The position numbers and the translations under genes are program-made. A stretch of DNA of 64,000 bases from the NCBI GenBank assembly GCA_963719425.1, contig OY970382.1, positions 244,862 to 308,861 on the forward strand, given 5' to 3'. Numbering within the stretch: the stretch's first letter is position 1; the number at the start of each line of letters is the position of its first letter. The DNA comes from an uncultured bacterium (GTDB lineage: Bacteria; Patescibacteriota; Minisyncoccia; UBA6257; 2-01-FULL-56-20). Below are positions 2,422 to 38,631 of the stretch, one piece after another. The notes beneath the pieces are model-generated. The model was not told where the DNA came from, made no database searches, and was given only the letters and a program-made list of their open reading frames with translations.

Positions 2422-3228
2422 ATGGATAACATTATTGAGGTGAAGAATTTGGTGAAGCAGTTCGGCGGTTTTGTGGCAGTGAACCATATTTCCTTTGATG
2501 TCAAAAAAGGGGAGGTTTTCGCCTTTTTGGGGCCGAATGGGGCAGGGAAGTCCACTACGATCAAGATGCTCACCACGCTCCTGCATCCCACGGGCGGCTC
2601 GATCGTGCTCGACGGTCACAGCCCAACGGAGGACCCCGAAGAAGTGCGGCGCTCGTTCGGCATCGTGTTCCAGGACCCGAGTTTGGACGACGAACTTACG
2701 GCGAAAGAAAACATGGAATTCCATGGGATTCTGTATAATGTTCCTGCGGAATTGCGCAAAGAGCGCGTTGAACAACTTATGAAGTTCGTGGAATTGTGGG
2801 ACCGGCGCGACAGCTTGGTCAAGGAATTTTCCGGCGGCATGAAGCGGCGGTTGGAAATCGCGCGCGGGCTTTTGCACCATCCGAAAGTGATATTTTTGGA
2901 CGAGCCGACGCTCGGCCTTGATCCGCAGACGCGCAACCATATGTGGACCTATCTGCAGGACTTGAACAAGAAGGAAGGCGTCACGGTATTTTTCACGACC
3001 CACTACATGGAAGAGGCGGCGCGCATAGCCCAGCGGATCGCGATCATTGATCACGGGGAGATCGTCGCCATAGGAAGCACGCAAGAACTCATGAAGCAGA
3101 CGGGAACTCCTTCGCTTGAAGACGCATTCCTTAAGCTGACTGGCAACGTGATCCGAGAAGAGGAGTCCAACGCGGTTGACCGGTTGCGTTCGCGTGCGCG
3201 CGCATGGGGCAACCGGGGAAGAAGGTAA
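2422..3228 (+). CDS. ABC-2 type transporter ATP-binding protein
   Basis: Walker A GPNGAGKST, signature FSGGMKRRLEIARGL, Walker B IFLDEPTLGLD. Start taken at MDNIIEVKNL (ATG 2422). Confidence 0.9.
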   Translation: MDNIIEVKNLVKQFGGFVAVNHISFDVKKGEVFAFLGPNGAGKSTTIKMLTTLLHPTGGSIVLDGHSPTEDPEEVRRSFGIVFQDPSLDDELTAKENMEFHGILYNVPAELRKERVEQLMKFVELWDRRDSLVKEFSGGMKRRLEIARGLLHHPKVIFLDEPTLGLDPQTRNHMWTYLQDLNKKEGVTVFFTTHYMEEAARIAQRIAIIDHGEIVAIGSTQELMKQTGTPSLEDAFLKLTGNVIREEESNAVDRLRSRARAWGNRGRR

Positions 3229-3246
3229 CAATATAATTCATTCACC

Positions 3247-3993
3247 ATGAAAACCATCTATATAATGTGGCTCCGTGAGTTGAAGCGGTATTTCCGTTCA
3301 AGGTCGCGGATGATCGGTTCGCTTGGCCAGCCGCTTCTCTTTCTGCTTGCGCTCGGTTACGGCCTGGGATCCGTTTTCCAGGCCGCAGGCCAAGGGAATT
3401 ATTTTCAGTTTTTGGTGCCGGGCATTGTCGGCATGAGCATTATTTTTACCGCGATTTTTTCCGGTATCCAGCTCATTTGGGATCGGCAGTTCGGATTTTT
3501 GAAGGAGACGCTTGTCGCGCCGGTATCGCGGCTCAACATCATGATCGGCCGCACGCTCGGCGGCGCGACCGTCGCGACATTCCAGGGAATCATCGTTTTC
3601 TTGATCTCCATGGTGTTCGGTTTCCGTCCGGATAATTGGTGGCTTCTGCCCGTCGCAGTCATCTTTATGCTTCTCGTCGCGCTGCTCTTTACCGCGCTCG
3701 GCACCGGCATCGCTTCGCTCCTTGAAGACATGCAGGGCTTCCAACTCATCATGAACTTCCTTGTCATGCCTTTGTTCTTCCTGTCTGGGGCGCTTTTTCC
3801 GCTCACCGGCTTGCCCGCTATCCTTACTGGCCTCACGACGGTTGACCCGCTCTCGTATGGCATTGATTCCTTCCGCGCGCTCCTTGTGAATACCACGCAT
3901 TTCGGCCTCGGCATTGACTTCGTCGTGCTTGCCGTCATCACCGCCGTGTTCTTGGGTGTCGGGAGCTATCTCTTTTCAAAGATCGAGGTATAA
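3247..3993 (+). CDS. ABC-2 type transporter permease
   Basis: Six predicted TM helices, ABC-2 family length and hydropathy. Immediately downstream of the ATPase. Confidence 0.8.
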   Translation: MKTIYIMWLRELKRYFRSRSRMIGSLGQPLLFLLALGYGLGSVFQAAGQGNYFQFLVPGIVGMSIIFTAIFSGIQLIWDRQFGFLKETLVAPVSRLNIMIGRTLGGATVATFQGIIVFLISMVFGFRPDNWWLLPVAVIFMLLVALLFTALGTGIASLLEDMQGFQLIMNFLVMPLFFLSGALFPLTGLPAILTGLTTVDPLSYGIDSFRALLVNTTHFGLGIDFVVLAVITAVFLGVGSYLFSKIEV

Positions 3994-6055: not shown

Positions 6056-9000
6056 CTACTGCGAGCAGAGCTGATTCAGGACTGATCGGGTCGCGGAACC
6101 TACGTAACCGTTGCCGGAAGTGAGGCCGTTCGGTGCAAGGATCTCATCGGCAAAGATGTTCTGGAAGATGATGACCGCATTCTTCGTGGCGTCGCCGAAG
6201 TAGGTGCTTTCATTGCCCGGCGAGCCCACGCCGCTCTGCGCCACTTGCGTGAGGTCGCTCATGTTCAGGACCGTTTGGAGCATTTTTACGTCGGCGTTGT
6301 TCATCCCTTGAGACAGGTTTTGGTTGAACTGGGCCGAACAAGAAGCGTCTTTCAGCTGCTGGGTGACCAGTTTTTTCTCAAGCGCGATAAGCTGTTGCAT
6401 CAAGCTTTGGAGAAGCTGGAGGAGTACTCCGGGATTCGTCGTTGAAGCGCCCAAGACCTGGCCGCCGCCCGTCGTGATCGTCGGTGGGTAATAGCCAGTA
6501 CCACCGCCCCCACCGCCTCCGCCGCCGGAAGTCACTACTATTCCACCTCCGTTGCCGGTATTACCTCCGGGCTGCGTTGCGCTGCCCGTAGTTGTTACTG
6601 TTATTTCGTTACCTACACTCTCCGGTGAGCCGTGCGAGACAGAGCGAAGATAGTAGGTGGTACCCGGCGTGAGGCCGGAAACCGTCACGCTGTGGTCGGT
6701 CGTCGTTGCTGCGTTCTCGTCCGTAGAGTTCGCGTAACCGTAGTTCGGCTCACCAGCTGCGGTGCTGGAAGCATCAGAAACCGATGCAGTGCCATATACC
6801 ACGCGGCTCGTCGCCGGATGATCGGTGGTCCAGGTGATCGTAACAGAGGTATCCGTCGGGTTGGTGGAGGTTTGTTCGGAAATGATCGGCGCTGGCAGAG
6901 CGAAGGTTTCTGTAAAGGCGCAAGGAATTGAATTGCCCGCAGGGGCCGTCTTGCCCTGACAGTCTCCATTGTTGCCCACCGTATAGTTGGTGAGCGATGA
7001 AATATTCGCGCCGTACGTCATTTTCTCATCCACCGTTACGAGTGTTCCTGAAGCGTTGCCTGGGAAGGTGGATGTGCTCGGGTGGCCTCCAATGATTGTC
7101 ACCGTAAAGTCGGAAGGCGTCGCCGAGCCACCTGCTGAGTTGTCAACTGTCACTGTAACGTTCAGGGTGCTTGTCGGCGTCGGCGGTGGGGGAGGCAGCT
7201 CGCTTATGATAAGCGTGTAGTGCTGCGCTGTTGAGAGCGAGCCATCCGAGACGCTTGTCGCTGTGATATCAAGCGGGAAGGTGCCTGTAGCCGTTGGGGT
7301 TCCGGAGAGAAGGCCGTCCGCAAAGTTCAAGCCAGGGATCGTGCCGCTCGCGTTCCAATTGAAGGTGTCAGAGGCGTTCCCGCTGTTCGTTGCCGTGAAG
7401 GTCTGCGAGTAGCTCGTGTCCGTCTCGGTGCCGGGAAGCGCGCCAGCCGCGGGGCTTATCGTAATGGTAGAGATGGAGGCCGGCGCTTCAACCACTTTGA
7501 TGCTGTAATCGCCGCTTGCGCTCTGCGAATTGTCCGAGTCGCTGGTCGCGTTCACGGAGAAGTTGAAGGTGCCGGTTGCGGTCGGCGTCCCCGAGATGCT
7601 CAGTGAGAAGCCGTCCGAAGAGGTGCTTACGTCCATGCCCGTCGGGATCGCGCCTGCGGTGATTGCGAAGATAAAGGTGTCAGTAGCATTCGCGGAGTTC
7701 GTTGCGTGGATCGTGGCCGGTGCCGGGTAGAGCACGTTCACTGTCGCGTCGTTGAATCCGCCGCTCGGAGGAGTAAGTGTCACCGTGGAGCTTGGCGTTG
7801 ACGTTGGAGCCGCAGCTTCCACCGTCAAGGTGTAGTTCTTGCTCGCCACGTTGCTTTGCACGTTACTGCCATTCACCGAGACGTTGATCGTCGAACTGCC
7901 AACATCACTCGCGTGCGGAGTGCCGCTCACCGTTGTGGTGTCACCGGCGGGCGTCGAGGTCGCCCATGCGGGCAGGCCCGCGATTTGCCAGGTCAAAGTG
8001 TCCGCCGGGTCGGTTGAAGTCGCAACGATGGTCGCGCTGTACGGGGTCTCCGCAGTCGCCGTGTCAGGCGTGAGGCCCGAGACGATCGTGATCGTTGGCG
8101 CGTTGCTTACCGCGAAGTCAAAGTGCTGGGTCGCTGTGCTCGCGCCGTTCGTGTTGTTTGTCGCGGTTACGTCAATCGGGAAGGTTCCGGTTGCGGCCGG
8201 GGTGCCAGTGAGGTTGCCATCGGTGAAGGTCAAGCCAGGGATTGTTCCGCTCGCGTTCCAGTTGAAGGTATCAGAAGCGTCCGCGTCAGAAGCCGTGAAG
8301 TTTCCGCTATAGGAAACGCCTATCGTCGCGTTGAGCGAGGGCGGTGTGATGGTTACTGCCGGCGCCGCAAGAACCGAGATCGAGAAATCCTGGGCCGTCG
8401 GGGCGCTCGCCGGGTTCGCGCCCGTTGCAGTCATATTCACCGTTGAGGAGCCGAGATCGGCTGATTCAGGCGTACCAGAGATGGTCGCTGTGTCGCCATT
8501 CACCGCAAACGATGTAATCCATGCAGGCAGCGGCGTTGAGGTGCTGAGAGTCAGGGTATCTGCTGGATTGGTTGAAGTGGCCGTAATCGTCGCCGTGTAG
8601 GGGATGCCAACTGTCGCATCCGGAAGCGGCGAGGTCGTTATGAAGGAAATGGCTGGAGCATTGCCAACCGTGATTGTGTCGGTCAAGGAGCCCGCGCTTG
8701 CGACATTTAAGGTACTCGTCGCATTCACGTTGAGAACAATTGAATCAGTCGTGGTCGGGGTGCCAGCGATGGTGAGCGTCGTTGGGGTTGAAGTGCTCGT
8801 GAAGCCGTCAGGCAAACCAGCCACACCGAAGGTAAAGGTGTCAGTCGCATTGCTGTCGCTTGCCGTGAAGGTTTGGCTGAAGGACACGCCTACTTCAGCT
8901 ACGTCAGGCGATGAGGTCGCGATCGTGATCGCCGGGGCGTCGCTTACCGTGAGGGGATAGGTTTGCGTTACGGTGGTTGAAGCGTTCGTTTCGTTCGTCG

Positions 9001-12000
9001 CGGTCACCGAGACCGTTGTTGAGGTCGGGGTCGTGGGCGTTCCGGAGATCGTGAGCGTGTTGCCCGTCGGGATGCTCGTTATGCCATCCGGCAAATCGCT
9101 CACTGTCCAGTTGAAGACACCAGTGTCAGTTGAAGAGACTGTGAGGATCGCGCCCGCGTAGGGGACACCCACCGTCGCCGTGTCGGGCACCTCGCCCGTG
9201 ATCGCTACATCCGCGGAGTTCACGGTGATTATATTCGGAGCGTTATTCACAGTGAAGGTCTGTGGAACGTTGGGAGCTGCCTCATGGTTCAAGTCGCTGG
9301 CCTGTTCTGCCGTGATCATGCAGCTGCCTGGGCCCATGAGGTGGACCGTGTTCGCAGAGATTGTACAGACGTCGGACGAGGTTGCGGTGAAGGTTACCGC
9401 GAGGCCCGAGGTTGATGTTGCGCTGATTGAGAAATCGGGATCGCCGATCGTCACATCAGCGAGGGGAGCGAACGCGATCGTCTGGCTCGCCTGTGCGATG
9501 ACGAGCGTGCCGGTAGCCGTACCCGCATAGTTCGGGTCAGTGATCGTGGCAGCTACTGCGTATGTTCCCGCGTCTACAGGAGTGGTCGTCGCATTATCGT
9601 ACGTCACAATATTTGCAAGGTTGTCCGGATTTGTCGTGACGCCAACCGTCTTCGGATTGCCATCATAAACCTGATTGAGATCTGCACTGTTCAGAGCAAT
9701 CGTAATAGACGATGGAGCGATCGCGTCAGCCACCGTGCCGGTCGCGTTGTTGTAGTTGCCGGTCGCGTCCGTGAAGGTCCAGGGATCGGTGGGGTAGCCC
9801 GCCGCGTCCGTGTGCGTCGTGCCCGTGAGATCAAGGCCGCTCAGGGCTTCGTCCAATACCCCTTTCGCGGTCCCGGTCGCGGTGTGGGCCGCGCCGTCAA
9901 ACGGCACTGCGTAGGGCGTGACTATGATGGTCGGGTTGGCTTTGGTGATCGCGATCGCTACCGTGCCGCTCGCATCGTTGTAGTTGGTACCGCCCGTGAA
10001 GGTCCAGGAGGCGGTGCCGCCAGGAACGTTCGTGAAGGAAGCACCGAGATCAAGCGAGGCCGCGAGGTCCGCACCGCCGATACCGGTCGCCGTCCCGGTC
10101 GCGCTGTGCGCCGCGCCATCGTAGACGCCGGTGTAGCCGGTGACATTGATGGTCGCATCCACCTTGCCGATCGCGTCAGCCACCGTGCCGGTCGCGTTGT
10201 TGTAGTTGCCGGTCGCGTCCGTGAAGGTCCAGGGATCAGTGGGGTAGCCCGCCGCGTCCGTGTGCGTCGTGCCCGTGAGATCAAGGCCGCTCAGGGCTTC
10301 GTCCAATACCCCTTTCGCGGTCCCGGTCGCGGTGTGGGCCGCGCCGTCAAACGGCACTGCGTAGGGCGTGACTATGATGGTCGGGTTGGCTTTGGTGATC
10401 GCGATCGCTACCGTGCCGCTCGCATCGTTGTAGTTGGTACCGCCCGTGAAGGTCCAGGAGGCGGTGCCGCCAGGAACGTTCGTGAAGGAAGCACCGAGAT
10501 CAAGCGAGGCCGCGAGGTCCGCACCGCCGATACCGGTCGCCGTCCCGGTCGCGCTGTGCGCCGCGCCATCGTAGACGCCGGTGTAGCCGGTGACATTGAT
10601 GGTCGCATCCACCTTGCCGATCGCGTCAGCCACCGTGCCGGTCGCGTTGTTGTAGTTGCCGGTCGCGTCCGTGAAGGTCCAGGGATCAGTGGGGTAGCCC
10701 GCCGCGTCCGTGTGCGTCGTGCCCGTGAGATCAAGGCCGCTCAGGGCTTCGTCCAATACCCCTTTCGCGGTCCCGGTCGCGGTGTGGGCCGCGCCGTCAA
10801 ACGGCACTGCGTAGGGCGTGACTATGATGGTCGGGTTGGCTTTGGTGATCGCGATCGCTACCGTGCCGCTCGCATCGTTGTAGTTGGTACCGCCCGTGAA
10901 GGTCCAGGAGGCGGTGCCGCCAGGAACGTTCGTGAAGGAAGCACCGAGATCAAGCGAGGCCGCGAGGTCCGCACCGCCGATACCGGTCGCCGTCCCGGTC
11001 GCGCTGTGCGCCGCGCCATCGTAGACGCCGGTGTAGCCGGTGACATTGATGGTCGCATCCACCTTGCCGATCGCGTCAGCCACCGTGCCGGTCGCGTTGT
11101 TGTAGTTGCCGGTCGCGTCCGTGAAGGTCCAGGGATCAGTGGGGTAGCCCGCCGCGTCCGTGTGCGTCGTGCCCGTGAGATCAAGGCCGCTCAGGGCTTC
11201 GTCCAATACCCCTTTCGCGGTCCCGGTCGCGGTGTGGGCCGCGCCGTCAAACGGCACTGCGTAGGGCGTGACTATGATGGTCGGGTTGGCTTTGGTGATC
11301 GCGATCGCTACCGTGCCGCTCGCATCGTTGTAGTTGGTACCGCCCGTGAAGGTCCAGGAGGCGGTGCCGCCAGGAACGTTCGTGAAGGAAGCACCGAGAT
11401 CAAGCGAGGCCGCGAGGTCCGCACCGCCGATACCGGTCGCCGTCCCGGTCGCGCTGTGCGCCGCGCCATCGTAGACGCCGGTGTAGCCGGTGACATTGAT
11501 GGTCGCATCCACCTTGCCGATCGCGTCAGCCACCGTGCCGGTCGCGTTGTTGTAGTTGCCGGTCGCGTCCGTGAAGGTCCAGGGATCAGTGGGGTAGCCC
11601 GCCGCGTCCGTGTGCGTCGTGCCCGTGAGATCAAGGCCGCTCAGGGCTTCGTCCAATACCCCTTTCGCGGTCCCGGTCGCGGTGTGGGCCGCGCCGTCAA
11701 ACGGCACTGCGTAGGGCGTGACTATGATGGTCGGGTTGGCTTTGGTGATCGCGATCGCTACCGTGCCGCTCGCATCGTTGTAGTTGGTACCGCCCGTGAA
11801 GGTCCAGGAGGCGGTGCCGCCAGGAACGTTCGTGAAGGAAGCACCGAGATCAAGCGAGGCCGCGAGGTCCGCACCGCCGATACCGGTCGCCGTCCCGGTC
11901 GCGCTGTGCGCCGCGCCATCGTAGACGCCGGTGTAGCCGGTGACATTGATGGTCGCATCCACCTTGCCGATCGCGTCAGCCACCGTGCCGGTCGCGTTGT

Positions 12001-15000
12001 TGTAGTTGCCGGTCGCGTCCGTGAAGGTCCAGGGATCAGTGGGGTAGCCCGCCGCGTCCGTGTGCGTCGTGCCCGTGAGATCAAGGCCGCTCAGGGCTTC
12101 GTCCAATACCCCTTTCGCGGTCCCGGTCGCGGTGTGGGCCGCGCCGTCAAACGGCACTGCGTAGGGCGTGACTATGATGGTCGGGTTGGCTTTGGTGATC
12201 GCGATCGCTACCGTGCCGCTCGCATCGTTGTAGTTGGTACCGCCCGTGAAGGTCCAGGAGGCGGTGCCGCCAGGAACGTTCGTGAAGGAAGCACCGAGAT
12301 CAAGCGAGGCCGCGAGGTCCGCACCGCCGATACCGGTCGCCGTCCCGGTCGCGCTGTGCGCCGCGCCATCGTAGACGCCGGTGTAGCCGGTGACATTGAT
12401 GGTCGCATCCACCTTGCCGATCGCGTCAGCCACCGTGCCGGTCGCGTTGTTGTAGTTGCCGGTCGCGTCCGTGAAGGTCCAGGGATCAGTGGGGTAGCCC
12501 GCCGCGTCCGTGTGCGTCGTGCCCGTGAGATCAAGGCCGCTCAGGGCTTCGTCCAATACCCCTTTCGCGGTCCCGGTCGCGGTGTGGGCCGCGCCGTCAA
12601 ACGGCACTGCGTAGGGCGTGACTATGATGGTCGGGTTGGCTTTGGTGATCGCGATCGCTACCGTGCCGCTCGCATCGTTGTAGTTGGTACCGCCCGTGAA
12701 GGTCCAGGAGGCGGTGCCGCCAGGAACGTTCGTGAAGGAAGCACCGAGATCAAGCGAGGCCGCGAGGTCCGCACCGCCGATACCGGTCGCCGTCCCGGTC
12801 GCGCTGTGCGCCGCGCCATCGTAGACGCCGGTGTAGCCGGTGACATTGATGGTCGCATCCACCTTGCCGATCGCGTCAGCCACCGTGCCGGTCGCGTTGT
12901 TGTAGTTGCCGGTCGCGTCCGTGAAGGTCCAGGGATCAGTGGGGTAGCCCGCCGCGTCCGTGTGCGTCGTGCCCGTGAGATCAAGGCCGCTCAGGGCTTC
13001 GTCCAATACCCCTTTCGCGGTCCCGGTCGCGGTGTGGGCCGCGCCGTCAAACGGCACTGCGTAGGGCGTGACTATGATGGTCGGGTTGGCTTTGGTGATC
13101 GCTGCAGTCGTTGTCGCTGTGTCGTTGAAGTTGTAGTTCGCCGCACTCGTTCCATTCAATATAATTCCCGTTACCGTGACGAGCTTCGCCGTGCCAGCAT
13201 TCGCGTCGGCAAATAATGCCGTGCCGCTTGCGGTCAGAAGGTCACCGTTCACGACGCCGTTCACCGTGAGATTGGCGGTCGCGTTCGTCGTGCCGTCGTA
13301 GACCTTATCGTGGCCGGTGGCCGAGACCGTGACCGAGGCCGCCGTGATGTTCAGTGTGCTTGTAACAAACGTCAGCGTGTAGTTGCCATTCAGGGCGAGA
13401 GTGCCCTGTTTGATAGCGTAAGCGCCGACGTTCTCGCCCGCATCGCGGATCAAGGCACCCGAAAAGGTATCACTTGCGATGAGTGTGCCGCTTGTGATCT
13501 GATAGGTCAAAGCCGGATCAACGGCGCCATATACCTTGGTCTTTGCGTCTGCTGTCACCGTAATCGCTCGCGGGATTACATTTACGGTGCGGACCACCGG
13601 AGTGGCGGCGTTGCCATGCGCGTCACTGACGTTATAGGTCACCGTGTACGCACCGAGCTGATTAATATTAACAGTACTCGTCGTAACGATGTGCGTGGTA
13701 AGGTCGCCGTCTATGTTATCAAGTGCGGTAGCGCCCGCGTCTACATAGGGAGTTCCCACTTCAGTGTTCACGGTGCTTGAGCCGATGAGTGTGATGACCG
13801 GCGGAGTGGTGTCATTTATATTTATGTATTGCGCCATCACGTCATGGATGGTGTCCACGCCGATCTGGCCGTTTCCCGTTCCCTTTTTGCCATTCAGATA
13901 GTCCACGGTGTCTTGGAGCACGGCCTGCGTCGTGCCATCCACTTCGGTGGCAAGCGGAGCAGTAGAGGTCTCTATCTGGTGGAAAAGTAGAATGAGCCAA
14001 ACCTTGTTCGCTGCTGCGTAATCAATCCATGAGTGTATCGTGTTCGTCGCAACCGATGCGTCAACAACTTGAACTTGGAGCGCATACGGATCGGTGTTTT
14101 TCAAGTTGTAACCCTGGATGACGCTGCGTCCGGCGGCGAAGTTATCAGCACTCAAAAGCCCTTCTATACTAGTGTTTCCCGCGCCTGAGCCGTAAGGATA
14201 CGCAAATGTGTCAACGGGCGTCACGCCTATGTCAGTGAGGGCGGTCTTGGATCCGTCTATCTGATCTTGGGCCGTTGACGGCGCTGGAAGCGGGTTATCG
14301 GGGCAGCCGACCGTTGTCATTGCCGAGTTGGGGTCATTGAAGAGCTGAACAAGGTCGCAGTGGTCTTCTGTGTGCGAACCGATTTCTTCTCCGTATGTGT
14401 TCTGGAGCGAGAGTACGCTTGAGGTGCTCATAAAGCTTAAATCTGGATCGTCAGGGCTGTTGAGCATCGCGTTGGTGATGATATAGAACGTTCCATGAAG
14501 ATGGGCGGCGTACAGCACCGGCACCGCATTGTCGAATTGCGATTGCCAACCATCGTCAAAAGTGAGCGAGACCAGTCCTTGGGGGAAAAGGTACGCACCC
14601 GGCTCTGCCACCAGGGTAAGCGAATAATTAGTAGTTGCGAGCGATCCATTGCCGCTGATGAAGTGATAGACCGTGACCGAAACAGCGTTCGGGGGCGCAG
14701 TAAACTGCTGCGTGGCGCTCGTCCATACACCGCCCGTCGAAGGAAGTGTGGCAAGGATGGGATATGTATTGGAGTTATCAGCGAGGGTGTATTCCGCAGC
14801 CAGGTAGCTCGTGTTTGTTGAGTTGTACCAGTCGGAGAACGAGTAGGTTGCGCCGCCTGTTATCGCCACGTGGTCAAAATACCAATCTGCGGCGCCATCC
14901 ACGTAGTTAGAGACGGAAACCTCGGCGGCTTTGTCTCCCGGATTCGGTCCGGCGAGCAGCGGGTAGCTGAATATTCTTGTGTTGTTGCCGTAACCGCCCT

Positions 15001-17881
15001 GATGCCAATAATCGGGATTGCTGGCTGATACCGTCGCGTCCAGCATGTTCGGATTCTGGATAAGGTTCGCTACTGCTGCGCTCACCGTGATGGTGTAGCC
15101 CTGCGTTGAGGATGTCAAACCGACAGTTGCTTTTATGGTGAAGTTGAATACTCCGGTCACACTTGGGGTTCCGGCGATGGAGGTTGTGGGGCCCGTGGCA
15201 GAAGTGAGCGAAAGCCCGTTAGGCAATGCGCCGGAAGTGAGTGTCCACGAAATCGTCCCCGTCGCCGCGGTTGTTGCCGTAAGCGTTTGCGCGTAGGGAG
15301 CGTCGATTGTGCCGTTCGCAAGCTCGGTCGGGCTGATGCCGAGCGGAGGCGGGACGAAAGTGTTCGTTATCGTACACGTGACCGTGCTCGTGCCCATCGT
15401 GCCCGTGCACGAAGCGGAGGGTGACACCGTGTAATATTGGGAGTTCGTGGTCGTTGCTTCAGCCACGCGGTATGTGTCGCCGACATTCAGCGTATAACTC
15501 TGCGTGCTTGAAGCAGAGCCGTTGAATACTGTTGTTGAGCCGTTCTTCAAAACGGTCAGGATGAAATCCCCATAGGTTGCGGAACCACTCGTACTGTTCA
15601 CGAGATTTACAACAAGCGTTGCGGAACTTATTTTAGTGGAGGTCAGCGAGCCCGATCCGGTGTTTCCAGCCGCATCCGTTTGCGATACGGTCGCGGTCAG
15701 GGTTCCGTCGGGAAGCGTGCTCAAATTAAGAACTTTTGACCACGCGCTTGAAGCGCAGGTTGAGGTGGCGTTCACACTGCTTGAAGCGTTCGTCACTGCA
15801 AGTGAAACCGTAAGGCCAGTTTCGCAGGCGCCCGAAAGGGTTACGGCGGTATTATTCGCGTTCGTGACCGCCGGGAATGAAGTGACCGTAACGCTCGGGG
15901 CGGTGTTATCCACCGTAAAAGTCGTGCTTGGTCCGGCAGCTGGAGCAGTGTTGCCCGCGTTGTCGCTTGCCGTTCCTGCCGCGATGCTGATGCCGAGCGT
16001 GCCGTCCCCAGTGATCGATGAGATCGTGACCGTTCTCGTGCTGGTCCCCGAGCCGGTCACCGCTACGGTGCCGGTGGTCGTTCCCGTCTTATTCAAAGCC
16101 ACATTGGCGTTCACAAGGGTAACGGTATCTGCGCCGCCATAGGTGATGGTGTAGGTGATCGGTCCGCTCTTTGTGAGTGACGCAGAGGGTGAGCCGATGG
16201 TAACGGTCGGCGCCGTGTTGTCGATTTGAATTTGTCGGTTCGCCGAAATTTGTGAATTGCCGACGGCATCCGCCACAGTGACCGTAAGCTGTTTGGCGCC
16301 GTCCGCGCCACCATTCGTGATCGTAAGGATGCCCGTGCATTTCTGCGTGGTAGTGCTGTAGGTGATCGATCCGGTAAACGATGTTACCCCGCTTATCGCT
16401 GGATTACAGCTTGTGCCATTTGTTATTCCCGAACCGGTTTCGGTGATTGAAACATCCACCGAGGTTGTCGCATTGTTTTTATAGCGTGAGTCCGTCGCAG
16501 GGGAGTTGAAGGAGTATGACGGAGCAGTCGTGTCGGGAGTTACTGCCACTGCAGTGCCGGTGCCGGTATTTCCCGCGTTGTCCGTTCCGCGGACGTTGAT
16601 TGAGGTCGCTGCGGCAGTGTTTACTCCGCTTGCACTACAGCTGCCGGCCGAAAATGTCCCCGCCGTCCACGTAGTGCCACCATTTATAGTGTATTGGCAG
16701 GAAGCAACGCCGCTTCCGGAGTCGCTCACCGTTGCGGAGATGGTTGAGGTTCCCGAGATATATTTCGGAGAAGAGCCGCTCGTCGGGGTTATTGTGACTG
16801 TTCCAATGGTCGGGGCGGCGGTGTCAATCTTCGCGACATTCGTAGACGTGTAGGTCGCCGTGTTGCCAGCGTTATCTGAGATAAGATATTGATATTCGTA
16901 ACAATTGCTGTTCGCAACAGTGGTGTCGTTATAGGGGCTCGTGGAGGTTGTTACGAGATTCGCGAAAGAGCCGAATGTTCCGCAGGAACCGTTGCTCAAT
17001 GTCGCCGAAGCCCGCTGGATTTTCCCCGAAGCCGTGTTTATGCCGGAACCACTATCGGTCCCAAGCGTAAAGGTGACGGAAACCGAAGTCGTCGTGGCGT
17101 AACCGTTGAGGTATGAGATGGAACCGCCGGAAGGAGGCGTTGTATCTGGGCGCAATGCAATGAGCTGTGCTTCCCAGGCGTCATTAGCTGCTCCGCTTGC
17201 AGTCTTTGCGCCGCTTGCACCTGTCGCGGACTGGACAGCGTCAGCTGTCTCTTCGTTTGGTCCGCTTGACTGAGTCTGGTCAAAACGCTCCGTCATACCG
17301 GTTGGGGGCGTCATCGATCCACTGCTATCGCTTGCAAAAGCCGCAACAAGCAAATCGTTTGCGACGGTAGTCGTAACATTTGAGGCAGATGGCGAAGCTG
17401 AAGTCCCTGTATTACCGCTCGAAGTATCAACTGGATTTGAAGTGTCAACGCCCGTATAGCGGAGAATGCCACCACCTGCTCGGTTCCCATGCGATCCATA
17501 GTTAAGGGTCCACGCGAAAGTAGATCCCTCTGAGCCGGTTACCACATGATAATAAGTAGCCAACGCATTATTAGTTCCATTGTTCGTCCTTAGTATCAGA
17601 GTCCAGCCGGACGGTGGTGTAATTGTGTCGTCGCTCCCACCATGGGCAGCAATGGTGGCGATGAGGATGTCGCCAGCTGCAGTGGATGCTGGCTTTGAAA
17701 TCGTGAGCGTGGTATTTGTGGTTGTCGCGTTCGCTTCCGTCCCGAAACTGATTGCTGCAAAGGCTTGTGGCACAACAAGTAGCATCCCGAGCGCCACCGC
17801 CGAACTGATTTTTATTAAATTTGTTTTTTGGAAAATGTTTTTCACTGATCTTTTATTTTTTATTTTTGTTTCTATTTTCAT
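6056..17881 (-). CDS. giant secreted cell-surface protein (3,941 aa)
   Basis: Signal peptide (KISSAVALGMLLVVPQAFAA). NodB motifs LVSLTFDDGW ... SHTEDH. DUF5011-like Ig domain (TPPVITLIGSSTVN...YNVSDAHGNAA). About 16 MBG/YDG domains (KVYDGTTNA...; YTGVYDGAAHSATG). Repeated He_PIG-like modules (LPDGIT ... ISGTPT). An FN3-like domain (TSVTITWTT ... GTTYYLRSV). A Gly9 run. C-terminal PG_binding_1-like domain (YFGDATKNAVIIFQ). Confidence 0.85.
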   Translation of the reverse strand: MKIETKIKNKRSVKNIFQKTNLIKISSAVALGMLLVVPQAFAAISFGTEANATTTNTTLTISKPASTAAGDILIATIAAHGGSDDTITPPSGWTLILRTNNGTNNALATYYHVVTGSEGSTFAWTLNYGSHGNRAGGGILRYTGVDTSNPVDTSSGNTGTSASPSASNVTTTVANDLLVAAFASDSSGSMTPPTGMTERFDQTQSSGPNEETADAVQSATGASGAKTASGAANDAWEAQLIALRPDTTPPSGGSISYLNGYATTTSVSVTFTLGTDSGSGINTASGKIQRASATLSNGSCGTFGSFANLVTTSTSPYNDTTVANSNCYEYQYLISDNAGNTATYTSTNVAKIDTAAPTIGTVTITPTSGSSPKYISGTSTISATVSDSGSGVASCQYTINGGTTWTAGTFSAGSCSASGVNTAAATSINVRGTDNAGNTGTGTAVAVTPDTTAPSYSFNSPATDSRYKNNATTSVDVSITETGSGITNGTSCNPAISGVTSFTGSITYSTTTQKCTGILTITNGGADGAKQLTVTVADAVGNSQISANRQIQIDNTAPTVTIGSPSASLTKSGPITYTITYGGADTVTLVNANVALNKTGTTTGTVAVTGSGTSTRTVTISSITGDGTLGISIAAGTASDNAGNTAPAAGPSTTFTVDNTAPSVTVTSFPAVTNANNTAVTLSGACETGLTVSLAVTNASSSVNATSTCASSAWSKVLNLSTLPDGTLTATVSQTDAAGNTGSGSLTSTKISSATLVVNLVNSTSGSATYGDFILTVLKNGSTTVFNGSASSTQSYTLNVGDTYRVAEATTTNSQYYTVSPSASCTGTMGTSTVTCTITNTFVPPPLGISPTELANGTIDAPYAQTLTATTAATGTISWTLTSGALPNGLSLTSATGPTTSIAGTPSVTGVFNFTIKATVGLTSSTQGYTITVSAAVANLIQNPNMLDATVSASNPDYWHQGGYGNNTRIFSYPLLAGPNPGDKAAEVSVSNYVDGAADWYFDHVAITGGATYSFSDWYNSTNTSYLAAEYTLADNSNTYPILATLPSTGGVWTSATQQFTAPPNAVSVTVYHFISGNGSLATTNYSLTLVAEPGAYLFPQGLVSLTFDDGWQSQFDNAVPVLYAAHLHGTFYIITNAMLNSPDDPDLSFMSTSSVLSLQNTYGEEIGSHTEDHCDLVQLFNDPNSAMTTVGCPDNPLPAPSTAQDQIDGSKTALTDIGVTPVDTFAYPYGSGAGNTSIEGLLSADNFAAGRSVIQGYNLKNTDPYALQVQVVDASVATNTIHSWIDYAAANKVWLILLFHQIETSTAPLATEVDGTTQAVLQDTVDYLNGKKGTGNGQIGVDTIHDVMAQYININDTTPPVITLIGSSTVNTEVGTPYVDAGATALDNIDGDLTTHIVTTSTVNINQLGAYTVTYNVSDAHGNAATPVVRTVNVIPRAITVTADAKTKVYGAVDPALTYQITSGTLIASDTFSGALIRDAGENVGAYAIKQGTLALNGNYTLTFVTSTLNITAASVTVSATGHDKVYDGTTNATANLTVNGVVNGDLLTASGTALFADANAGTAKLVTVTGIILNGTSAANYNFNDTATTTAAITKANPTIIVTPYAVPFDGAAHTATGTAKGVLDEALSGLDLTGTTHTDAAGYPTDPWTFTDATGNYNNATGTVADAIGKVDATINVTGYTGVYDGAAHSATGTATGIGGADLAASLDLGASFTNVPGGTASWTFTGGTNYNDASGTVAIAITKANPTIIVTPYAVPFDGAAHTATGTAKGVLDEALSGLDLTGTTHTDAAGYPTDPWTFTDATGNYNNATGTVADAIGKVDATINVTGYTGVYDGAAHSATGTATGIGGADLAASLDLGASFTNVPGGTASWTFTGGTNYNDASGTVAIAITKANPTIIVTPYAVPFDGAAHTATGTAKGVLDEALSGLDLTGTTHTDAAGYPTDPWTFTDATGNYNNATGTVADAIGKVDATINVTGYTGVYDGAAHSATGTATGIGGADLAASLDLGASFTNVPGGTASWTFTGGTNYNDASGTVAIAITKANPTIIVTPYAVPFDGAAHTATGTAKGVLDEALSGLDLTGTTHTDAAGYPTDPWTFTDATGNYNNATGTVADAIGKVDATINVTGYTGVYDGAAHSATGTATGIGGADLAASLDLGASFTNVPGGTASWTFTGGTNYNDASGTVAIAITKANPTIIVTPYAVPFDGAAHTATGTAKGVLDEALSGLDLTGTTHTDAAGYPTDPWTFTDATGNYNNATGTVADAIGKVDATINVTGYTGVYDGAAHSATGTATGIGGADLAASLDLGASFTNVPGGTASWTFTGGTNYNDASGTVAIAITKANPTIIVTPYAVPFDGAAHTATGTAKGVLDEALSGLDLTGTTHTDAAGYPTDPWTFTDATGNYNNATGTVADAIGKVDATINVTGYTGVYDGAAHSATGTATGIGGADLAASLDLGASFTNVPGGTASWTFTGGTNYNDASGTVAIAITKANPTIIVTPYAVPFDGAAHTATGTAKGVLDEALSGLDLTGTTHTDAAGYPTDPWTFTDATGNYNNATGTVADAIGKVDATINVTGYTGVYDGAAHSATGTATGIGGADLAASLDLGASFTNVPGGTASWTFTGGTNYNDASGTVAIAITKANPTIIVTPYAVPFDGAAHTATGTAKGVLDEALSGLDLTGTTHTDAAGYPTDPWTFTDATGNYNNATGTVADAIAPSSITIALNSADLNQVYDGNPKTVGVTTNPDNLANIVTYDNATTTPVDAGTYAVAATITDPNYAGTATGTLVIAQASQTIAFAPLADVTIGDPDFSISATSTSGLAVTFTATSSDVCTISANTVHLMGPGSCMITAEQASDLNHEAAPNVPQTFTVNNAPNIITVNSADVAITGEVPDTATVGVPYAGAILTVSSTDTGVFNWTVSDLPDGITSIPTGNTLTISGTPTTPTSTTVSVTATNETNASTTVTQTYPLTVSDAPAITIATSSPDVAEVGVSFSQTFTASDSNATDTFTFGVAGLPDGFTSTSTPTTLTIAGTPTTTDSIVLNVNATSTLNVASAGSLTDTITVGNAPAISFITTSPLPDATVGIPYTATITATSTNPADTLTLSTSTPLPAWITSFAVNGDTATISGTPESADLGSSTVNMTATGANPASAPTAQDFSISVLAAPAVTITPPSLNATIGVSYSGNFTASDADASDTFNWNASGTIPGLTFTDGNLTGTPAATGTFPIDVTATNNTNGASTATQHFDFAVSNAPTITIVSGLTPDTATAETPYSATIVATSTDPADTLTWQIAGLPAWATSTPAGDTTTVSGTPHASDVGSSTINVSVNGSNVQSNVASKNYTLTVEAAAPTSTPSSTVTLTPPSGGFNDATVNVLYPAPATIHATNSANATDTFIFAITAGAIPTGMDVSTSSDGFSLSISGTPTATGTFNFSVNATSDSDNSQSASGDYSIKVVEAPASISTITISPAAGALPGTETDTSYSQTFTATNSGNASDTFNWNASGTIPGLNFADGLLSGTPTATGTFPLDITATSVSDGSLSTAQHYTLIISELPPPPPTPTSTLNVTVTVDNSAGGSATPSDFTVTIIGGHPSTSTFPGNASGTLVTVDEKMTYGANISSLTNYTVGNNGDCQGKTAPAGNSIPCAFTETFALPAPIISEQTSTNPTDTSVTITWTTDHPATSRVVYGTASVSDASSTAAGEPNYGYANSTDENAATTTDHSVTVSGLTPGTTYYLRSVSHGSPESVGNEITVTTTGSATQPGGNTGNGGGIVVTSGGGGGGGGGTGYYPPTITTGGGQVLGASTTNPGVLLQLLQSLMQQLIALEKKLVTQQLKDASCSAQFNQNLSQGMNNADVKMLQTVLNMSDLTQVAQSGVGSPGNESTYFGDATKNAVIIFQNIFADEILAPNGLTSGNGYVGSATRSVLNQLCSQ
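9790..13101 (-). repeat. about 7.4 nucleotide-identical tandem copies of a 450-bp unit (150 aa, two MBG/YDG domains) inside the giant gene
   Basis: Identical sequence lines recur every 450 bp. Identical shadow ORFs fall at 9958, 10408, ..., 12658. Only the edge copies differ (e.g. cggt vs cagt at 9788 vs 10238). Confidence 0.9.
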
Positions 17882-18172
17882 TTTTATTTTTTGATTTTAG
17901 ATTTGATGTGATGTTATTCCCGACCCTTTCTTTTTGACTGCACCTGGAACATAAGAGGATTCGGCGGAGGAGATATGCACATGCCTCCTCTATGGACGCC
18001 GAAAAGCTCCCACAGAGGAGAGTTCCTGTATTGGCCACTTTCTGTGCCCTGGAAGGCCCGTAAATCCACACTCTTCATGGTTAATGATGGCCGTTTTAAT
18101 GCTCCTTTAATTTGCGGGGAGAATAGCATATTACAAGAAGGCGTGTCAAGGGCACTAAAACAGGAGCGAATG

Positions 18173-24129: not shown

Positions 24130-26268
24130 CTACCAATTCACTTGACTCGTGGTTATAACCGTTGTCCAGGGACCAGAAGGGACGTTGCTCGCGGGGACAA
24201 ATTGCCAGTTAACCTGGTTTTCGGCGTTGTCTAATCCGTTGAAGCCCAAACAATCCCTCAAGGCCGGAGACACGTCCATGCCCGCACTGTTGGCTTGCTT
24301 GTTGAGTGGGCGCTGGTCATTCGTGCCAAAAACATAATTGTAGTCGGCGTAGTCAAAGGGTCCGGCGTCTTCGTTCTGGCCGTAGCAAACATTGCTGCCC
24401 TTGGTCAGCTTAACCCAGACGTTTTTCATATAGGAATAATTTTGTGAAGTGTTGCCGGTATACCAGGGAATATTCACTCTCCAGGCATAAGCCGTCGGAT
24501 TATTTATGTCGTCAAACGGCACATCCAAATAGAAAGGATTTTCTTTCGGGTAAAAACTCGTCGGGAAAAAAGGATAGGTACGGAGAGCGGTGTCATCCAC
24601 TCCGCCATAGTCCGCTTCCCACGAACCATCATACGTTGAGATGGTATTGACCTCGGTATAACCGGGAATGGAGCCTTCACCTATCCAAAACACGGTGGCG
24701 GTAATGTTAGTGTGCCAGGGATAAGGACTGCCGGTAGAAGTCGGGGTTGTTGAGGTCGGCGTTGAGGTCGGCGTGCTCTGCACGAAGGTGTTCGTGATAG
24801 CACAGGTGACCGCGCTCGCGCCCATCGTTCCCGCGCAGGCGTTGCCCAGCGCGATCGTGTAACTCGCAGAGTTTGTTGTTGTCGCTTCGGCCACGGAATA
24901 GGCGTCGCCTTGCGTGATCGCAAAGTTTTTGCTCGCTGCAGCGGCTCCGCTAAAGACGGTCGTCGCGGCATCCTTCACGGTAAGGTTAAAATTCGCAGCC
25001 GTTGCCGAACCGCCGTTTACGGAAATCGTCACGGTGAGCGTTGATGTCGGCGTGGGGGCCGGCGGGGTAACCGGCGCTGCAGCGATGCCTATCGTATAGC
25101 TCCGCGTGGATGAGCTCGCGCCGTTCGTGGCTTTTATGGAAAAGGTGGATGTTCCTGCCGTTCCTGGCATTCCTGCGATCGTGGTGGTAACGCTCACCGA
25201 GGAAGTATTGAGCGATAGACCGTTCGGCAAGCTTCCCGAATTTACGCTCCAGGCGAAAGGCCCGTTTGCGGTTGTTGAAGCAGTGAGAACGGCCGGCCCA
25301 TAGGCGACGCTTGCGGTGCCATTCGGGATCGTTGAAGGAATAATGGCGAGAGCGGGCGCGGGTGCGGGTGGGGGCGGGGGAACGTAGGTGTCCGTAATGG
25401 TGCAGTTTGTACTCGCGGTTCCCGCGGTGCCGGAACAGGCAGTGCTCATACTTATGGTATAGTTGGCCGAGTTTGAAGTGGTTGCTTCACTTACGAGATA
25501 GGCATCGCCCTGCGTGAGGGTAAAGGAAAGCGGTGTGGAAGATCCTGCGCCGGAGAAGAGAGTTAACGACGCGGTGTTGTCTATCGCCGTGACATTGAAG
25601 TCGCTCGCGGCCGCCGTACCTCCGTTCACAACAAGGTTAATGGTAAGGGTGGTCGTTGCGGGGGAGGGAGATGTGCCTGAACCACCACCACCCCTGCCAC
25701 CGCCACCGCCTCCTCCGGAAGGAGGAGTTGAAGTTGGCGTGGGAGTCGGTGTCGGAGTTTTGTGTTTATTCTGCAGCGACCAAAGTTGTTGGAAGAGACC
25801 ACCGATGCGTGCTTGGAGGAGCGTCACCGAATTCAAGCTGGTCGGGGTCTGAATCCCTGTCGGCGGCGTTGTCGTTGTAGAACTTGTCACTGGGCCGATT
25901 TGGAATGCGCCAAATTGGCTCTGATAGGTTTGCAGTTCCAATGCGAGCACGTCATTCGCTTTCGCCCGAGTGAGGGGGCCGAAGTAACCACTCACCGGCG
26001 AGATATTGTTCTTTGTCTGGAAATCCTTCACGCCCTTTAGCGTGAGCGAGAAGAAATTGCCGGTGATGGGGCCGGAGTAAGCTCCTTCGTTCGTAAGGAA
26101 TTGCTGGAGATTGGTAACGTCGGCGTTGTTCGTTAGTCCGAAATAAAGATTGTTCGCGAAAGATTGGCTCGCTGCGCCCACAGAGATCGGCGCGCCCAAA
26201 AGGCCGAAAGAAGCTACTCCCGCAACCCCAAGCGCTATACCGATAGAATAAGGCTTGCGCATGGTCAT
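24130..26268 (-). CDS. secreted peptidoglycan-binding protein with two Ig-like two-Cys modules and an unknown C-terminal domain
   Basis: Signal peptide. N-terminal PG_binding_1-like region (TNLQQFLTNEGAYSGPITGNF). PT-rich linkers. Two about 95-aa modules that resemble modules in the giant protein. Aromatic-rich C-terminal domain about 240 aa long. Confidence 0.75.
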   Translation of the reverse strand: MTMRKPYSIGIALGVAGVASFGLLGAPISVGAASQSFANNLYFGLTNNADVTNLQQFLTNEGAYSGPITGNFFSLTLKGVKDFQTKNNISPVSGYFGPLTRAKANDVLALELQTYQSQFGAFQIGPVTSSTTTTPPTGIQTPTSLNSVTLLQARIGGLFQQLWSLQNKHKTPTPTPTPTSTPPSGGGGGGGRGGGGSGTSPSPATTTLTINLVVNGGTAAASDFNVTAIDNTASLTLFSGAGSSTPLSFTLTQGDAYLVSEATTSNSANYTISMSTACSGTAGTASTNCTITDTYVPPPPPAPAPALAIIPSTIPNGTASVAYGPAVLTASTTANGPFAWSVNSGSLPNGLSLNTSSVSVTTTIAGMPGTAGTSTFSIKATNGASSSTRSYTIGIAAAPVTPPAPTPTSTLTVTISVNGGSATAANFNLTVKDAATTVFSGAAAASKNFAITQGDAYSVAEATTTNSASYTIALGNACAGTMGASAVTCAITNTFVQSTPTSTPTSTTPTSTGSPYPWHTNITATVFWIGEGSIPGYTEVNTISTYDGSWEADYGGVDDTALRTYPFFPTSFYPKENPFYLDVPFDDINNPTAYAWRVNIPWYTGNTSQNYSYMKNVWVKLTKGSNVCYGQNEDAGPFDYADYNYVFGTNDQRPLNKQANSAGMDVSPALRDCLGFNGLDNAENQVNWQFVPASNVPSGPWTTVITTSQVNW

Positions 26269-26320
26269 ATATTGGTACGGTAGAGGATACTTTATGTTAC
26301 ATAAAAGGTCAAGCACTCTT

Positions 26321-28684: not shown

Positions 28685-29259
28685 TGGTAATACTCACAAT
28701 TATCAAGTGGATCTGCATTGTGATTGTGATACTGCTCATTGTGGGCTTCATCTTTGCGTTTTATACGGGCTGGTTTTACCACCCGTTCATGGTGATTATC
28801 ACAATTATCAAGTGGATCTGCATTGTGATTATGATACTGCTCGCCGGGGGCTTCATCTTTGCGTTGTATAAGGGTTGGTCGTACCACCCGCGTTATGAAT
28901 TGGAAACGCGGAAAGCGAAGAAAATATTCACCCTGCGCGACGTGGTGACGAAGGAGCACTGGGAATCCATTGTGAGGAAGTTCTCGCTGGGAACGCCGGA
29001 GGCCGCGCGGGAAGCCGTCATTGAGGCCGATGCGCTCGTGGACACAGTGTTGAAGAGTATGGAAATTCCCGGGCAGCATCTCGCCGACCGGTTGTCCAAT
29101 CTGGAGCCGGAGGAAATTGCGTCGCTCGATCGGGCATGGCGGGCGCACCGCACGCGGAACGATCTCGTGCACACGCCGGGATTTGCGCTGACCGAAAAGG
29201 AGGCGCAAAAGACGCTTGAGGACTACGAGGCTTTTCTCAAAGATTTGGGAGTGCTATAA
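28684..29259 (+). CDS. two-TM membrane protein with duplicated TM segment and helical cytoplasmic C-terminal domain
   Basis: TAATG overlap with the upstream gene. Two near-identical segments (TIIKWICIVI(V/M)ILL..GFIFA.Y.GW.YHP). Confidence 0.55.
   Translation: MVILTIIKWICIVIVILLIVGFIFAFYTGWFYHPFMVIITIIKWICIVIMILLAGGFIFALYKGWSYHPRYELETRKAKKIFTLRDVVTKEHWESIVRKFSLGTPEAAREAVIEADALVDTVLKSMEIPGQHLADRLSNLEPEEIASLDRAWRAHRTRNDLVHTPGFALTEKEAQKTLEDYEAFLKDLGVL
28690..28893 (+). repeat. approximately 102-bp tandem direct duplication (about 90% identical) encoding two TM helices
   Basis: atcacaattatcaagtggatctgcattgtgatt ... appears at about 28693 and again at about 28796. Confidence 0.6.
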
Positions 29260-29266
29260 CGAGGCC

Positions 29267-31461: not shown

Positions 31462-31516
31462 ATCGCCACCCTATCACATCACCCGTTAAAACTTTGTTAA
31501 ATGTCCGACCCACAAC

Positions 31517-31527
31517 GGTGTTATACT
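31517..31527 (+). promoter_or_regulatory. extended -10 element TGtTATACT, 6 nt upstream of the ATG at 31534 (leaderless-type geometry)
   Basis: Read directly. The same -10/N6/ATG geometry occurs at 27305/27317 and 30741/30753. Confidence 0.35.
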
Positions 31528-31533
31528 GTTTCT

Positions 31534-33318: not shown

Positions 33319-33341
33319 TAGCTCTGGAGTAAAATAAAGAC

Positions 33342-36835: not shown

Positions 36836-36881
36836 CCCACTTGGCAGCTTGTGAAAAGGAGTAAAATGGAGGGGTAAGGCC

Positions 36882-38624: not shown

Positions 38625-38631
38625 TTAAGAC

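Follow-up and report, generated by a model that had tools for sequence, protein, structure and literature searches.

Here we describe a tandem array of near-identical 450-bp repeats within a single giant gene of an uncultured bacterium of the Minisyncoccia, a lineage of the Patescibacteria, or candidate phyla radiation (CPR). The window, by which we mean the whole stretch of DNA that was analysed, comprises 64,000 nucleotides (nt) of contig OY970382.1 (assembly GCA_963719425.1, positions 244,862 to 308,861 of the forward strand); all coordinates below are positions in this window. The gene is a long open reading frame (ORF) on the minus strand, and the array lies in the middle of the protein that it encodes. 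The ORF was taken from the ORF list, its translation and Pfam matches, the array from Tandem Repeats Finder (TRF) together with a base-by-base comparison at a lag of 450 and a copy-by-copy comparison in which copy 2 served as the reference.

6056..17881, minus strand: giant ORF of 3,941 amino acids (aa) that encodes a secreted multi-domain surface protein and holds the array.
9718..13102, minus strand: the whole 450-bp tandem array.
9953..13102, minus strand: seven complete 450-bp copies, 3,150 bp in all, mutually 100% identical.
9718..9952, minus strand: eighth, partial copy of 235 nt at the 3' end of the array, encoding one A-type domain and identical to the others at 234 of 235 nt.
9788, minus strand: the single substitution of the array, synonymous, giving ACC for the ACT of the other copies at Thr2698.

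TRF reported a period of 450 bp from 9718 to 13102, with 7.5 copies, 99% matches, 0 indels and a score of 6763; the array spans 7.52 periods and encodes residues 1594 to 2722. At a lag of 450, identity is 100% across 9789-13102, that is, over 3,314 bp or 7.36 periods (compared positions 9789-12652), and the sole mismatch in 9718-13102 is a G at 9788 facing an A at 10238. Read in the orientation of the gene, the seven complete copies (13102-9953) show 0 differences. Just beyond either edge of the array, lag-450 identity drops to a random level of ~25-40%. A preliminary description of this DNA had proposed seven or more identical 450-bp repeats over more than 3.3 kb inside a giant gene, and both the repeats and their location are borne out: seven full copies are present, and since 450 nt make up 150 codons they run in frame through the 3,941-aa ORF. 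Its interval for the array, 9790-13101, was essentially right, with the start now placed at 9718. It had also confined substitutions to the edge copies, which agrees with the one in the 3' partial copy and not with the 5' edge copy, which is perfect. The repeat pattern far exceeds chance expectation. TRF additionally returned a nested period of ~222 bp at 67% identity. A stop-free ORF of 1,134 aa also lies over the array on the plus strand (9812-13216) and is almost certainly no gene, being a by-product of the repeated stop-free antisense frame.

The repeating unit of 150 aa consists of two related all-beta immunoglobulin (Ig)-like domains of ~75 aa each, A and B, so that the array reads (A-B)x7-A and contains 15 domains. 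Inside the unit, A and B are 53% identical in protein and ~67% identical in DNA. The hexamer GCGATC, which encodes Ala-Ile in the conserved last beta-strand of a domain, is found at both edges of the array (13097-13102 and 9718-9724) and at every junction between units; given that both edges share it, the repeat covers exactly 15 domain lengths. In an AlphaFold2 (AF2) model of one unit, both domains are predicted to be all-beta (mean predicted local distance difference test score, pLDDT, of 98.3), and the best structural matches of this model are the tandem Ig-like domains of chitinase 60, an RTX adhesin extender, LigA, S-layer proteins, invasin and Rib.

Independent evidence on the array comes from a short-read assembly. 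The Logan contig ERR10755942_374097 (14,384 bp; L001) is 100% identical to window positions 27457-13074 and stops 29 nt after the first repeated base, inside the array. If the repeat is real, a de Bruijn graph built with k=31 is bound to branch here, and the stop of the contig at this point fits that. The contig independently confirms the junction between flank and repeat, not the copy number. Look-ups of the downstream neighbours (PMSR, an ABC-2 permease and a 237-aa ORF) returned nothing on record, and neither did a look-up of the predicted C-terminal fragment, aa 2689-3941, for a short-read contig entering the array from downstream. Only part of the window's genes are on record from Logan, and the organism was therefore probably at low coverage in that run.

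These data bear on whether the copies were mis-counted, or whether differences between copies or strains were erased by consensus or polishing, in which case no single cell would truly carry the perfect 7.5-copy array. The window sequence belongs to a metagenome-assembled contig (887,956 bp), and short-read assembly failed to cross the array. A close relative, OY970175.1, belongs to the long-read set of Microflora Danica, a Nanopore-only project whose reads (median N50 of 6.1 kb) were assembled with metaFlye and one Medaka round; if the window shares this origin, as we infer, errors in the registration of tandem repeats are possible. Frameshifted stretches also occur inside the arrays of some relatives from other assemblies, such as P0264. 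Against this, the ORF runs through all of its 11.8 kb without a break, and no indel occurs in the 3.4 kb of the array; the terminal copy has kept its copy-specific single nucleotide polymorphism (SNP), so the consensus did not flatten everything; the edges of the array are in frame and at equivalent domain positions; and near-identical arrays of the same family are present in many independent assemblies. The array is, moreover, shorter than typical long reads, which makes spanning reads likely if the link to that dataset holds, and collapse, the usual artefact, lowers the copy number and would not create 7.5 copies. We consider it unlikely, on balance, that the array is an artefact of assembly or consensus, and take its exact copy number as provisional. 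Among the three origins offered in the preliminary description (very recent expansion, ongoing concerted evolution or an artefact), the last is thus disfavoured by the intact ORF, the SNP, the edges and the short-read contig, and the three are not fully separated.

The array is therefore probably a genuine amplification of the A-B unit that is either very young or subject to continuous homogenisation. It forms part of the stalk of a giant surface protein, secreted and probably bound to peptidoglycan, of a member of the Minisyncoccia. With 0 differences in 7 x 450 nt, and assuming a star tree, the copies have diverged from their last shared ancestor by no more than ~9.5e-4 substitutions per site (95% upper bound). 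As A and B are only 53% identical in protein, the duplication that gave rise to A and B is old and the amplification of the A-B pair is new. That both edges lie on the same hexamer and enclose exactly 15 domain lengths is the outcome to be expected if homologous domains underwent unequal exchange. The process may have begun, for example, from an ancestral A-B-A' arrangement that underwent unequal exchange, followed by expansion and homogenisation, and unequal homologous recombination or replication slippage among the perfect 450-bp repeats would then add, remove and homogenise units. Because the unit is 150 codons long, every gain or loss of a whole unit stays in frame, and each would lengthen or shorten the stalk by two domains. 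If CdrA, a stalk protein of Pseudomonas aeruginosa that is considered below, is taken as a guide, each unit would contribute ~8-10 nm and the 15 domains ~60-70 nm, and the length of the stalk would set how far the N-terminal head of 1,590 aa, including a NodB-type deacetylase, projects from the cell. The rod shape is suggested by CdrA and by RTX extender analogues; that copy number varies across the population, how the protein is anchored and what it does are likewise what we infer for this protein. The preliminary description called the length variation that it anticipated phase-like, and this term misleads. We rejected ON/OFF phase variation of the kind seen at contingency loci, given that the unit is a multiple of three and internal to the ORF; only the length of the protein can change, and the gene cannot be switched off.

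An alternative is that the expansion is real and recent, and is now a fixed feature: the stalk would have been lengthened neutrally, or by selection that acted once, and its copy number would neither vary any longer nor serve to adjust projection length. In favour of this, most arrays of the family have diverged to 75-90% identity, indicating that arrays often cease to exchange and drift apart. The seven copies here show zero synonymous differences, which points to exchange that is very recent or still going on. Perfect tandem repeats of 450 bp are by nature unstable, being subject to RecA-dependent and slippage-type deletion and duplication, and this instability also counts against a fixed feature. 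So does a survey of Periscope Proteins, a class of surface proteins described below, in which repeat number varied between strains in 84 of 180 clusters of similar proteins (PMC9704523). A fixed array thus seems improbable to us, and we favour a very young or continuously homogenised one.

The protein in which the array is embedded has the predicted layout of a secreted, stalked surface protein. Its N-terminal part carries Big-type Ig domains, a He_PIG domain and a weak CBM_4_9 match by Pfam, and its other recognisable parts, from the N-terminus to the C-terminus, are the following.

17756..17881, minus strand: putative Sec-type signal peptide, aa 1-42, with a basic n-region, a hydrophobic core and an AFA/A cleavage motif (translation inspected by eye).
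14180..14581, minus strand: polysaccharide deacetylase (NodB-type) in the N-terminal head, aa 1101-1234 (Pfam PF01522, E=3.1e-14).
13577..13795, minus strand: bacterial surface Ig-like domain, aa 1363-1435 (Pfam PF16403, E=5.7e-18).
13352..13564, minus strand: MBG_2 domain (YGX-type), aa 1440-1510, one domain upstream of the array (Pfam PF18676, E=6.5e-18).
13103..13345, minus strand: YDG-type MBG-like domain, aa 1513-1593, abutting the array (sequence and junctions; hhalign matches it weakly to the family of the unit, E=0.006).
9485..9685, minus strand: MBG_3 domain, aa 2733-2799, ~10 residues downstream of the array (Pfam PF18887, E=1.4e-23).
7202..9214, minus strand: some seven Ig domains of He_PIG type that have diverged from one another, aa ~2890-3560 (Pfam PF05345; pairwise BLASTP).
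6158..6298, minus strand: PG_binding_1-like segment, aa 3862-3908, a putative non-covalent wall anchor (Pfam PF01471, E=7e-4, 20.2 bits).

Homologues of the deacetylase region carry the names peptidoglycan, xylan or chitin deacetylase. The junction sequences reveal that the last strand of the YDG-type domain (ITKA) already belongs to the repeat. C-terminal to the He_PIG domains are an FN3-like domain, a Gly-rich linker and the PG_binding_1-like segment; clear PG_binding_1 domains occur in related CPR proteins and in the neighbouring gene at 24130-26316. Among the products of the genes near the giant ORF are UDP-sugar enzymes and glycosyltransferases, along with a PG_binding_1 protein. An AT-rich tract of 6.7 TTTTAT repeats (17851-17891) overlaps the annotated ATG of the giant gene, whose first ~10 codons are rich in Lys, Ile and Asn; the true start may lie slightly downstream of this ATG.

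To what family do the units belong? The preliminary description called them pairs of MBG domains, and this is upheld at the level of the superfamily. We aligned 60 diverse single domains drawn from 150 homologous proteins (alignment A1), from which a ~75-aa consensus was obtained, Y..YDG..H.A.G.A.GV.G..L...L.L..T.HTNAG.Y.D.WTFT...NYN...GTV.D.I.K. Searched individually against Pfam, 14 of the 60 hit MBG_3 (best E=4.3e-7), 3 hit MBG_2 and 1 hit MBG (PF17883). Compared with hhalign, the family profile matched the adjacent MBG_3 domain at E=2.7e-4 and a probability of 41%; against the MBG_2 domain of the same gene the probability was 0.2%. A search of PDB sequences with the family profile gave no match. 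Genuine MBG_2 and MBG_3 domains flank the array on either side in the same stalk. By these profile comparisons, the units are MBG-type at the superfamily or family level only and not direct members of a Pfam family, so the earlier assignment fails at the level of the units themselves. With MBG_3 detecting about a quarter of the sampled instances, the ~75-aa domain family is a candidate for a new model in the MBG clan.

Among 1.84 billion cluster representatives searched with HMMER, 2,094 are similar to the unit at E<=1e-3; of E<=1e-30 there are 633, and many of the relatives contain 10-24 matched stretches each. The domain family is thus large, at ~2,100 cluster representatives from many phyla, and most of it escapes the Pfam models of its superfamily. 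At the protein level, 16 of the 150 best family members have at least three tandem copies at 95% aa identity or above, and several of these 150 have 6-9 copies at 100% aa identity; P0250, P0268, P0275-P0277, P0282 and P0283 are examples of proteins with near-identical arrays. At the DNA level, we ran TRF on 79 loci from many phyla, with one genome per species. The arrays at these loci are 62-100% identical in nucleotides, mostly 75-90%, and about nine reach 95% or more; two-domain periods of 444-456 bp occur at no fewer than 8 of the 79, with 78-93% identity. The highest TRF score of all belongs to the present array. As an internal control, the He_PIG repeats of the same protein are 29-51% identical in pairwise BLASTP alignments. 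The suggestion that such arrays in other giant proteins are usually diverged is therefore correct for most of the 79 loci; near-identical arrays are nonetheless no exception in this family, as the 16 proteins and roughly nine arrays at 95% or above show. The present array is the extreme of this range and not different in kind.

Some of the other near-perfect arrays are of note in their own right. They include five copies of 225 bp at 100% identity (L058, 8877-10011), twelve of 270 bp at 99% and five of 222 bp at 96% (L024, 6267-9509 and 9776-10878), and 2.7 copies of 672 bp at 99% (L038, 10209-12014); their assignment to the domain family is a candidate one in each case. The near-perfect arrays of L024, L058 and L038 sit in other long-read metagenome-assembled genomes (MAGs), of Acidobacteriota and Chloroflexia. 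P0264 (953 aa) and the C-terminal ends of P0254, P0259 and P0283 contain Arg/Pro-rich out-of-frame stretches in or after their arrays, after which the frame is regained, which suggests indel errors or real frameshifts in GC-rich arrays of other assemblies.

The base composition of the array raises a further question. The G+C content at third codon positions (GC3) is 0.83 in the unit, compared with 0.64 in the rest of the gene (parts elsewhere, 0.45-0.77) and 0.50-0.73 in 17 other genes of the window. Among 62 other arrays of the family, GC3 exceeds that of the rest of the ORF by a mean of +0.05 and a maximum of +0.18; the excess of the present array is +0.19. GC-biased gene conversion in its general form was rejected as a cause, as GC3 excess was not correlated with array identity over the 62 arrays (Spearman rho 0.04, p=0.74). 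Another potential explanation is that the A-B block was acquired horizontally from a donor of higher GC content, or shuffled from another gene, through recombination at GCGATC, and was amplified before or after its arrival. This is compatible with a young or continuously homogenised amplification and not a strict alternative to it. In support of an outside origin, the GC3 of the unit lies above the rest of the gene and the 17 other genes, its excess tops all 62 comparable arrays, identity to the flanks ends abruptly at the same hexamer on both sides, and in the scan of genome contigs the closest homologues of the unit are those of Acidobacteriota, at 71-73% aa identity, compared with 52-66% for CPR genomes. 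However, no donor sequence above 73% aa identity was found (the best being Acidobacteriota), raised GC3 is general in the arrays of this family (the mean of +0.05), a sample of 150 codons is a small basis for a compositional argument, and the flanking domains also belong to the MBG superfamily, which makes an origin in situ equally simple. We therefore hold horizontal acquisition or shuffling to be doubtful.

A bolder proposal, and one to which we give a similarly low chance, joins these threads: the array would be a length-switching stalk whose copy number is heterogeneous in the population of an ultra-small, probably episymbiotic CPR bacterium, where it would tune the reach of the deacetylase head to the envelope of a host, and A-B would be a horizontally acquired GC-rich cassette inserted at a 6-nt motif. 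If true, a horizontally acquired length-switching stalk would extend the mechanism of Periscope Proteins to the attachment of CPR bacteria to their hosts and to stalk cassettes that move between phyla.

Several observations weigh against a young or continuously homogenised array in the stalk of a peptidoglycan-bound protein. A single metagenomic assembly is the source of both its copy number and its perfect identity. The collections searched yielded no conspecific or orthologous gene, and the closest relative genome found, OY970175.1 (L009), has a homologue of 950 aa only, with diverged domains and no synteny at the locus. The unit itself is not recognised by Pfam, with 0 families at E<=10 for the 150 aa and 0 families at E<=1 for the A domain alone. 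The match of the C-terminal segment to PG_binding_1 lies under the Pfam cut-off of 23 bits, which makes the topology uncertain, and the raised GC3 of the unit is left unexplained by a recombination model.

The extent of the search for relatives was as follows. A scan of a collection of genome contigs with the unit yielded the 79 loci, with neither the source genome nor an orthologue among them. The best match in a scan of metagenome contigs with the upstream flank was 51% identical. Protein searches with the unit, with aa 950-1440 and with aa 1-950, whose matches were restricted to ~1.75x the query length, returned distant relatives only and no orthologue; the best matches of the flank and head regions were at most 51% identical or partial only. 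The sequence cluster of the giant protein has 1 member. Proteins homologous to the flanking regions bear the names Minisyncoccia, Paceibacterota or Patescibacteria, and the neighbouring CarB falls into a 90% cluster whose representative is named Minisyncoccia and which also contains OY970175.1. The organism is accordingly a CPR bacterium, and its genome measures about 0.9 Mb.

Arrays of this kind are a familiar type of feature, and finding one in a stalk is expected, not surprising. Periscope Proteins are surface proteins of a single chain whose stalk is made of highly identical domains in tandem, the number of which varies by intragenic homologous recombination (PMC8201768, Whelan et al. 2021; PMC9704523). 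The present protein, which is probably also a secreted single chain, resembles them in having repeats of more than 50 residues that are near-identical in protein and DNA (seven copies at 100%, the eighth at 234 of 235 nt), and in that its repeats are predicted by AF2, at the pLDDT given above, to be separately folding globular beta domains. We propose the same mechanism for it, in which intragenic recombination would change the repeat number and with it the length of projection. It differs in that Periscope Proteins are defined by variation of repeat number from strain to strain, whereas the array here is known from one assembly. Its host is an uncultivated CPR bacterium, not a pathogen from a culture collection, its anchor is a putative non-covalent peptidoglycan-binding segment and not an LPXTG motif or an outer-membrane anchor, and its array lies mid-protein between other, diverged stalk domains.

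The closest precedent is CdrA of P. aeruginosa, with SasG/Aap being the closest for a repeating unit of two sub-domains. CdrA is built of MBG_2 repeats, 15 of them in strain PAO1, measures ~71 nm by cryo-electron tomography and varies in repeat number between strains (PMC9704523). Both proteins have a stalk of the MBG superfamily, and 15 domains are present in our array too. However, Pfam MBG_2 detects the repeats of CdrA directly and no Pfam model detects the units here. CdrA is also exported by two-partner secretion from a Gram-negative bacterium, and the present protein has a heterotypic A-B pair as its repeating unit. In SasG/Aap of staphylococci, G5-E pairs encoded by near-identical DNA vary in copy number between strains and set the length of a rod that projects the N-terminal domain; the anchor is covalent, via LPXTG, and the E segments fold only within the array. 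The present unit is likewise a pair of two different sub-domains, and its copies are near-identical in DNA. The G5/E fold is unrelated to the Ig-like beta-sandwich, and, in contrast to the E segments, both A and B are confidently predicted to fold. Long runs of identical or near-identical Ig-like domains also serve as adhesin spacers in Rib/alpha-C, SHIRT (Sgo_0707), Esp/Bap and RTX extender arrays (MpIBP region II), and structures of an RTX extender, Rib and LigA were among the best structural matches of the unit model.

Our findings suggest that Periscope-type architecture, known so far mainly from pathogens in culture, is also present in a CPR/Patescibacteria genome. Short-read metagenomes systematically break or collapse those surface proteins whose repeats are identical, and such proteins are therefore almost unknown in uncultivated lineages. 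If copy number does vary, strain-level heterogeneity could be followed conveniently at this locus, which would also be a candidate determinant of host contact by these tiny cells.

Elsewhere in the window, scans with Rfam and for tRNAs found nothing relevant. Two plus-strand genes encode TraG/VirD4-like coupling-protein ATPases, at 29216-30745 (509 aa) and at 40469-42430 (653 aa, with a treble-clef zinc finger). Between them lie five tandem paralogues (31501-40425) of ~570-605 aa each and 33-47% pairwise identity; the one that was compared with Pfam had no match. Just upstream of the first TraG-like gene, inside overlapping ORFs, is a 105-bp direct repeat (28694-28890) with 1.9 copies at 89% identity.

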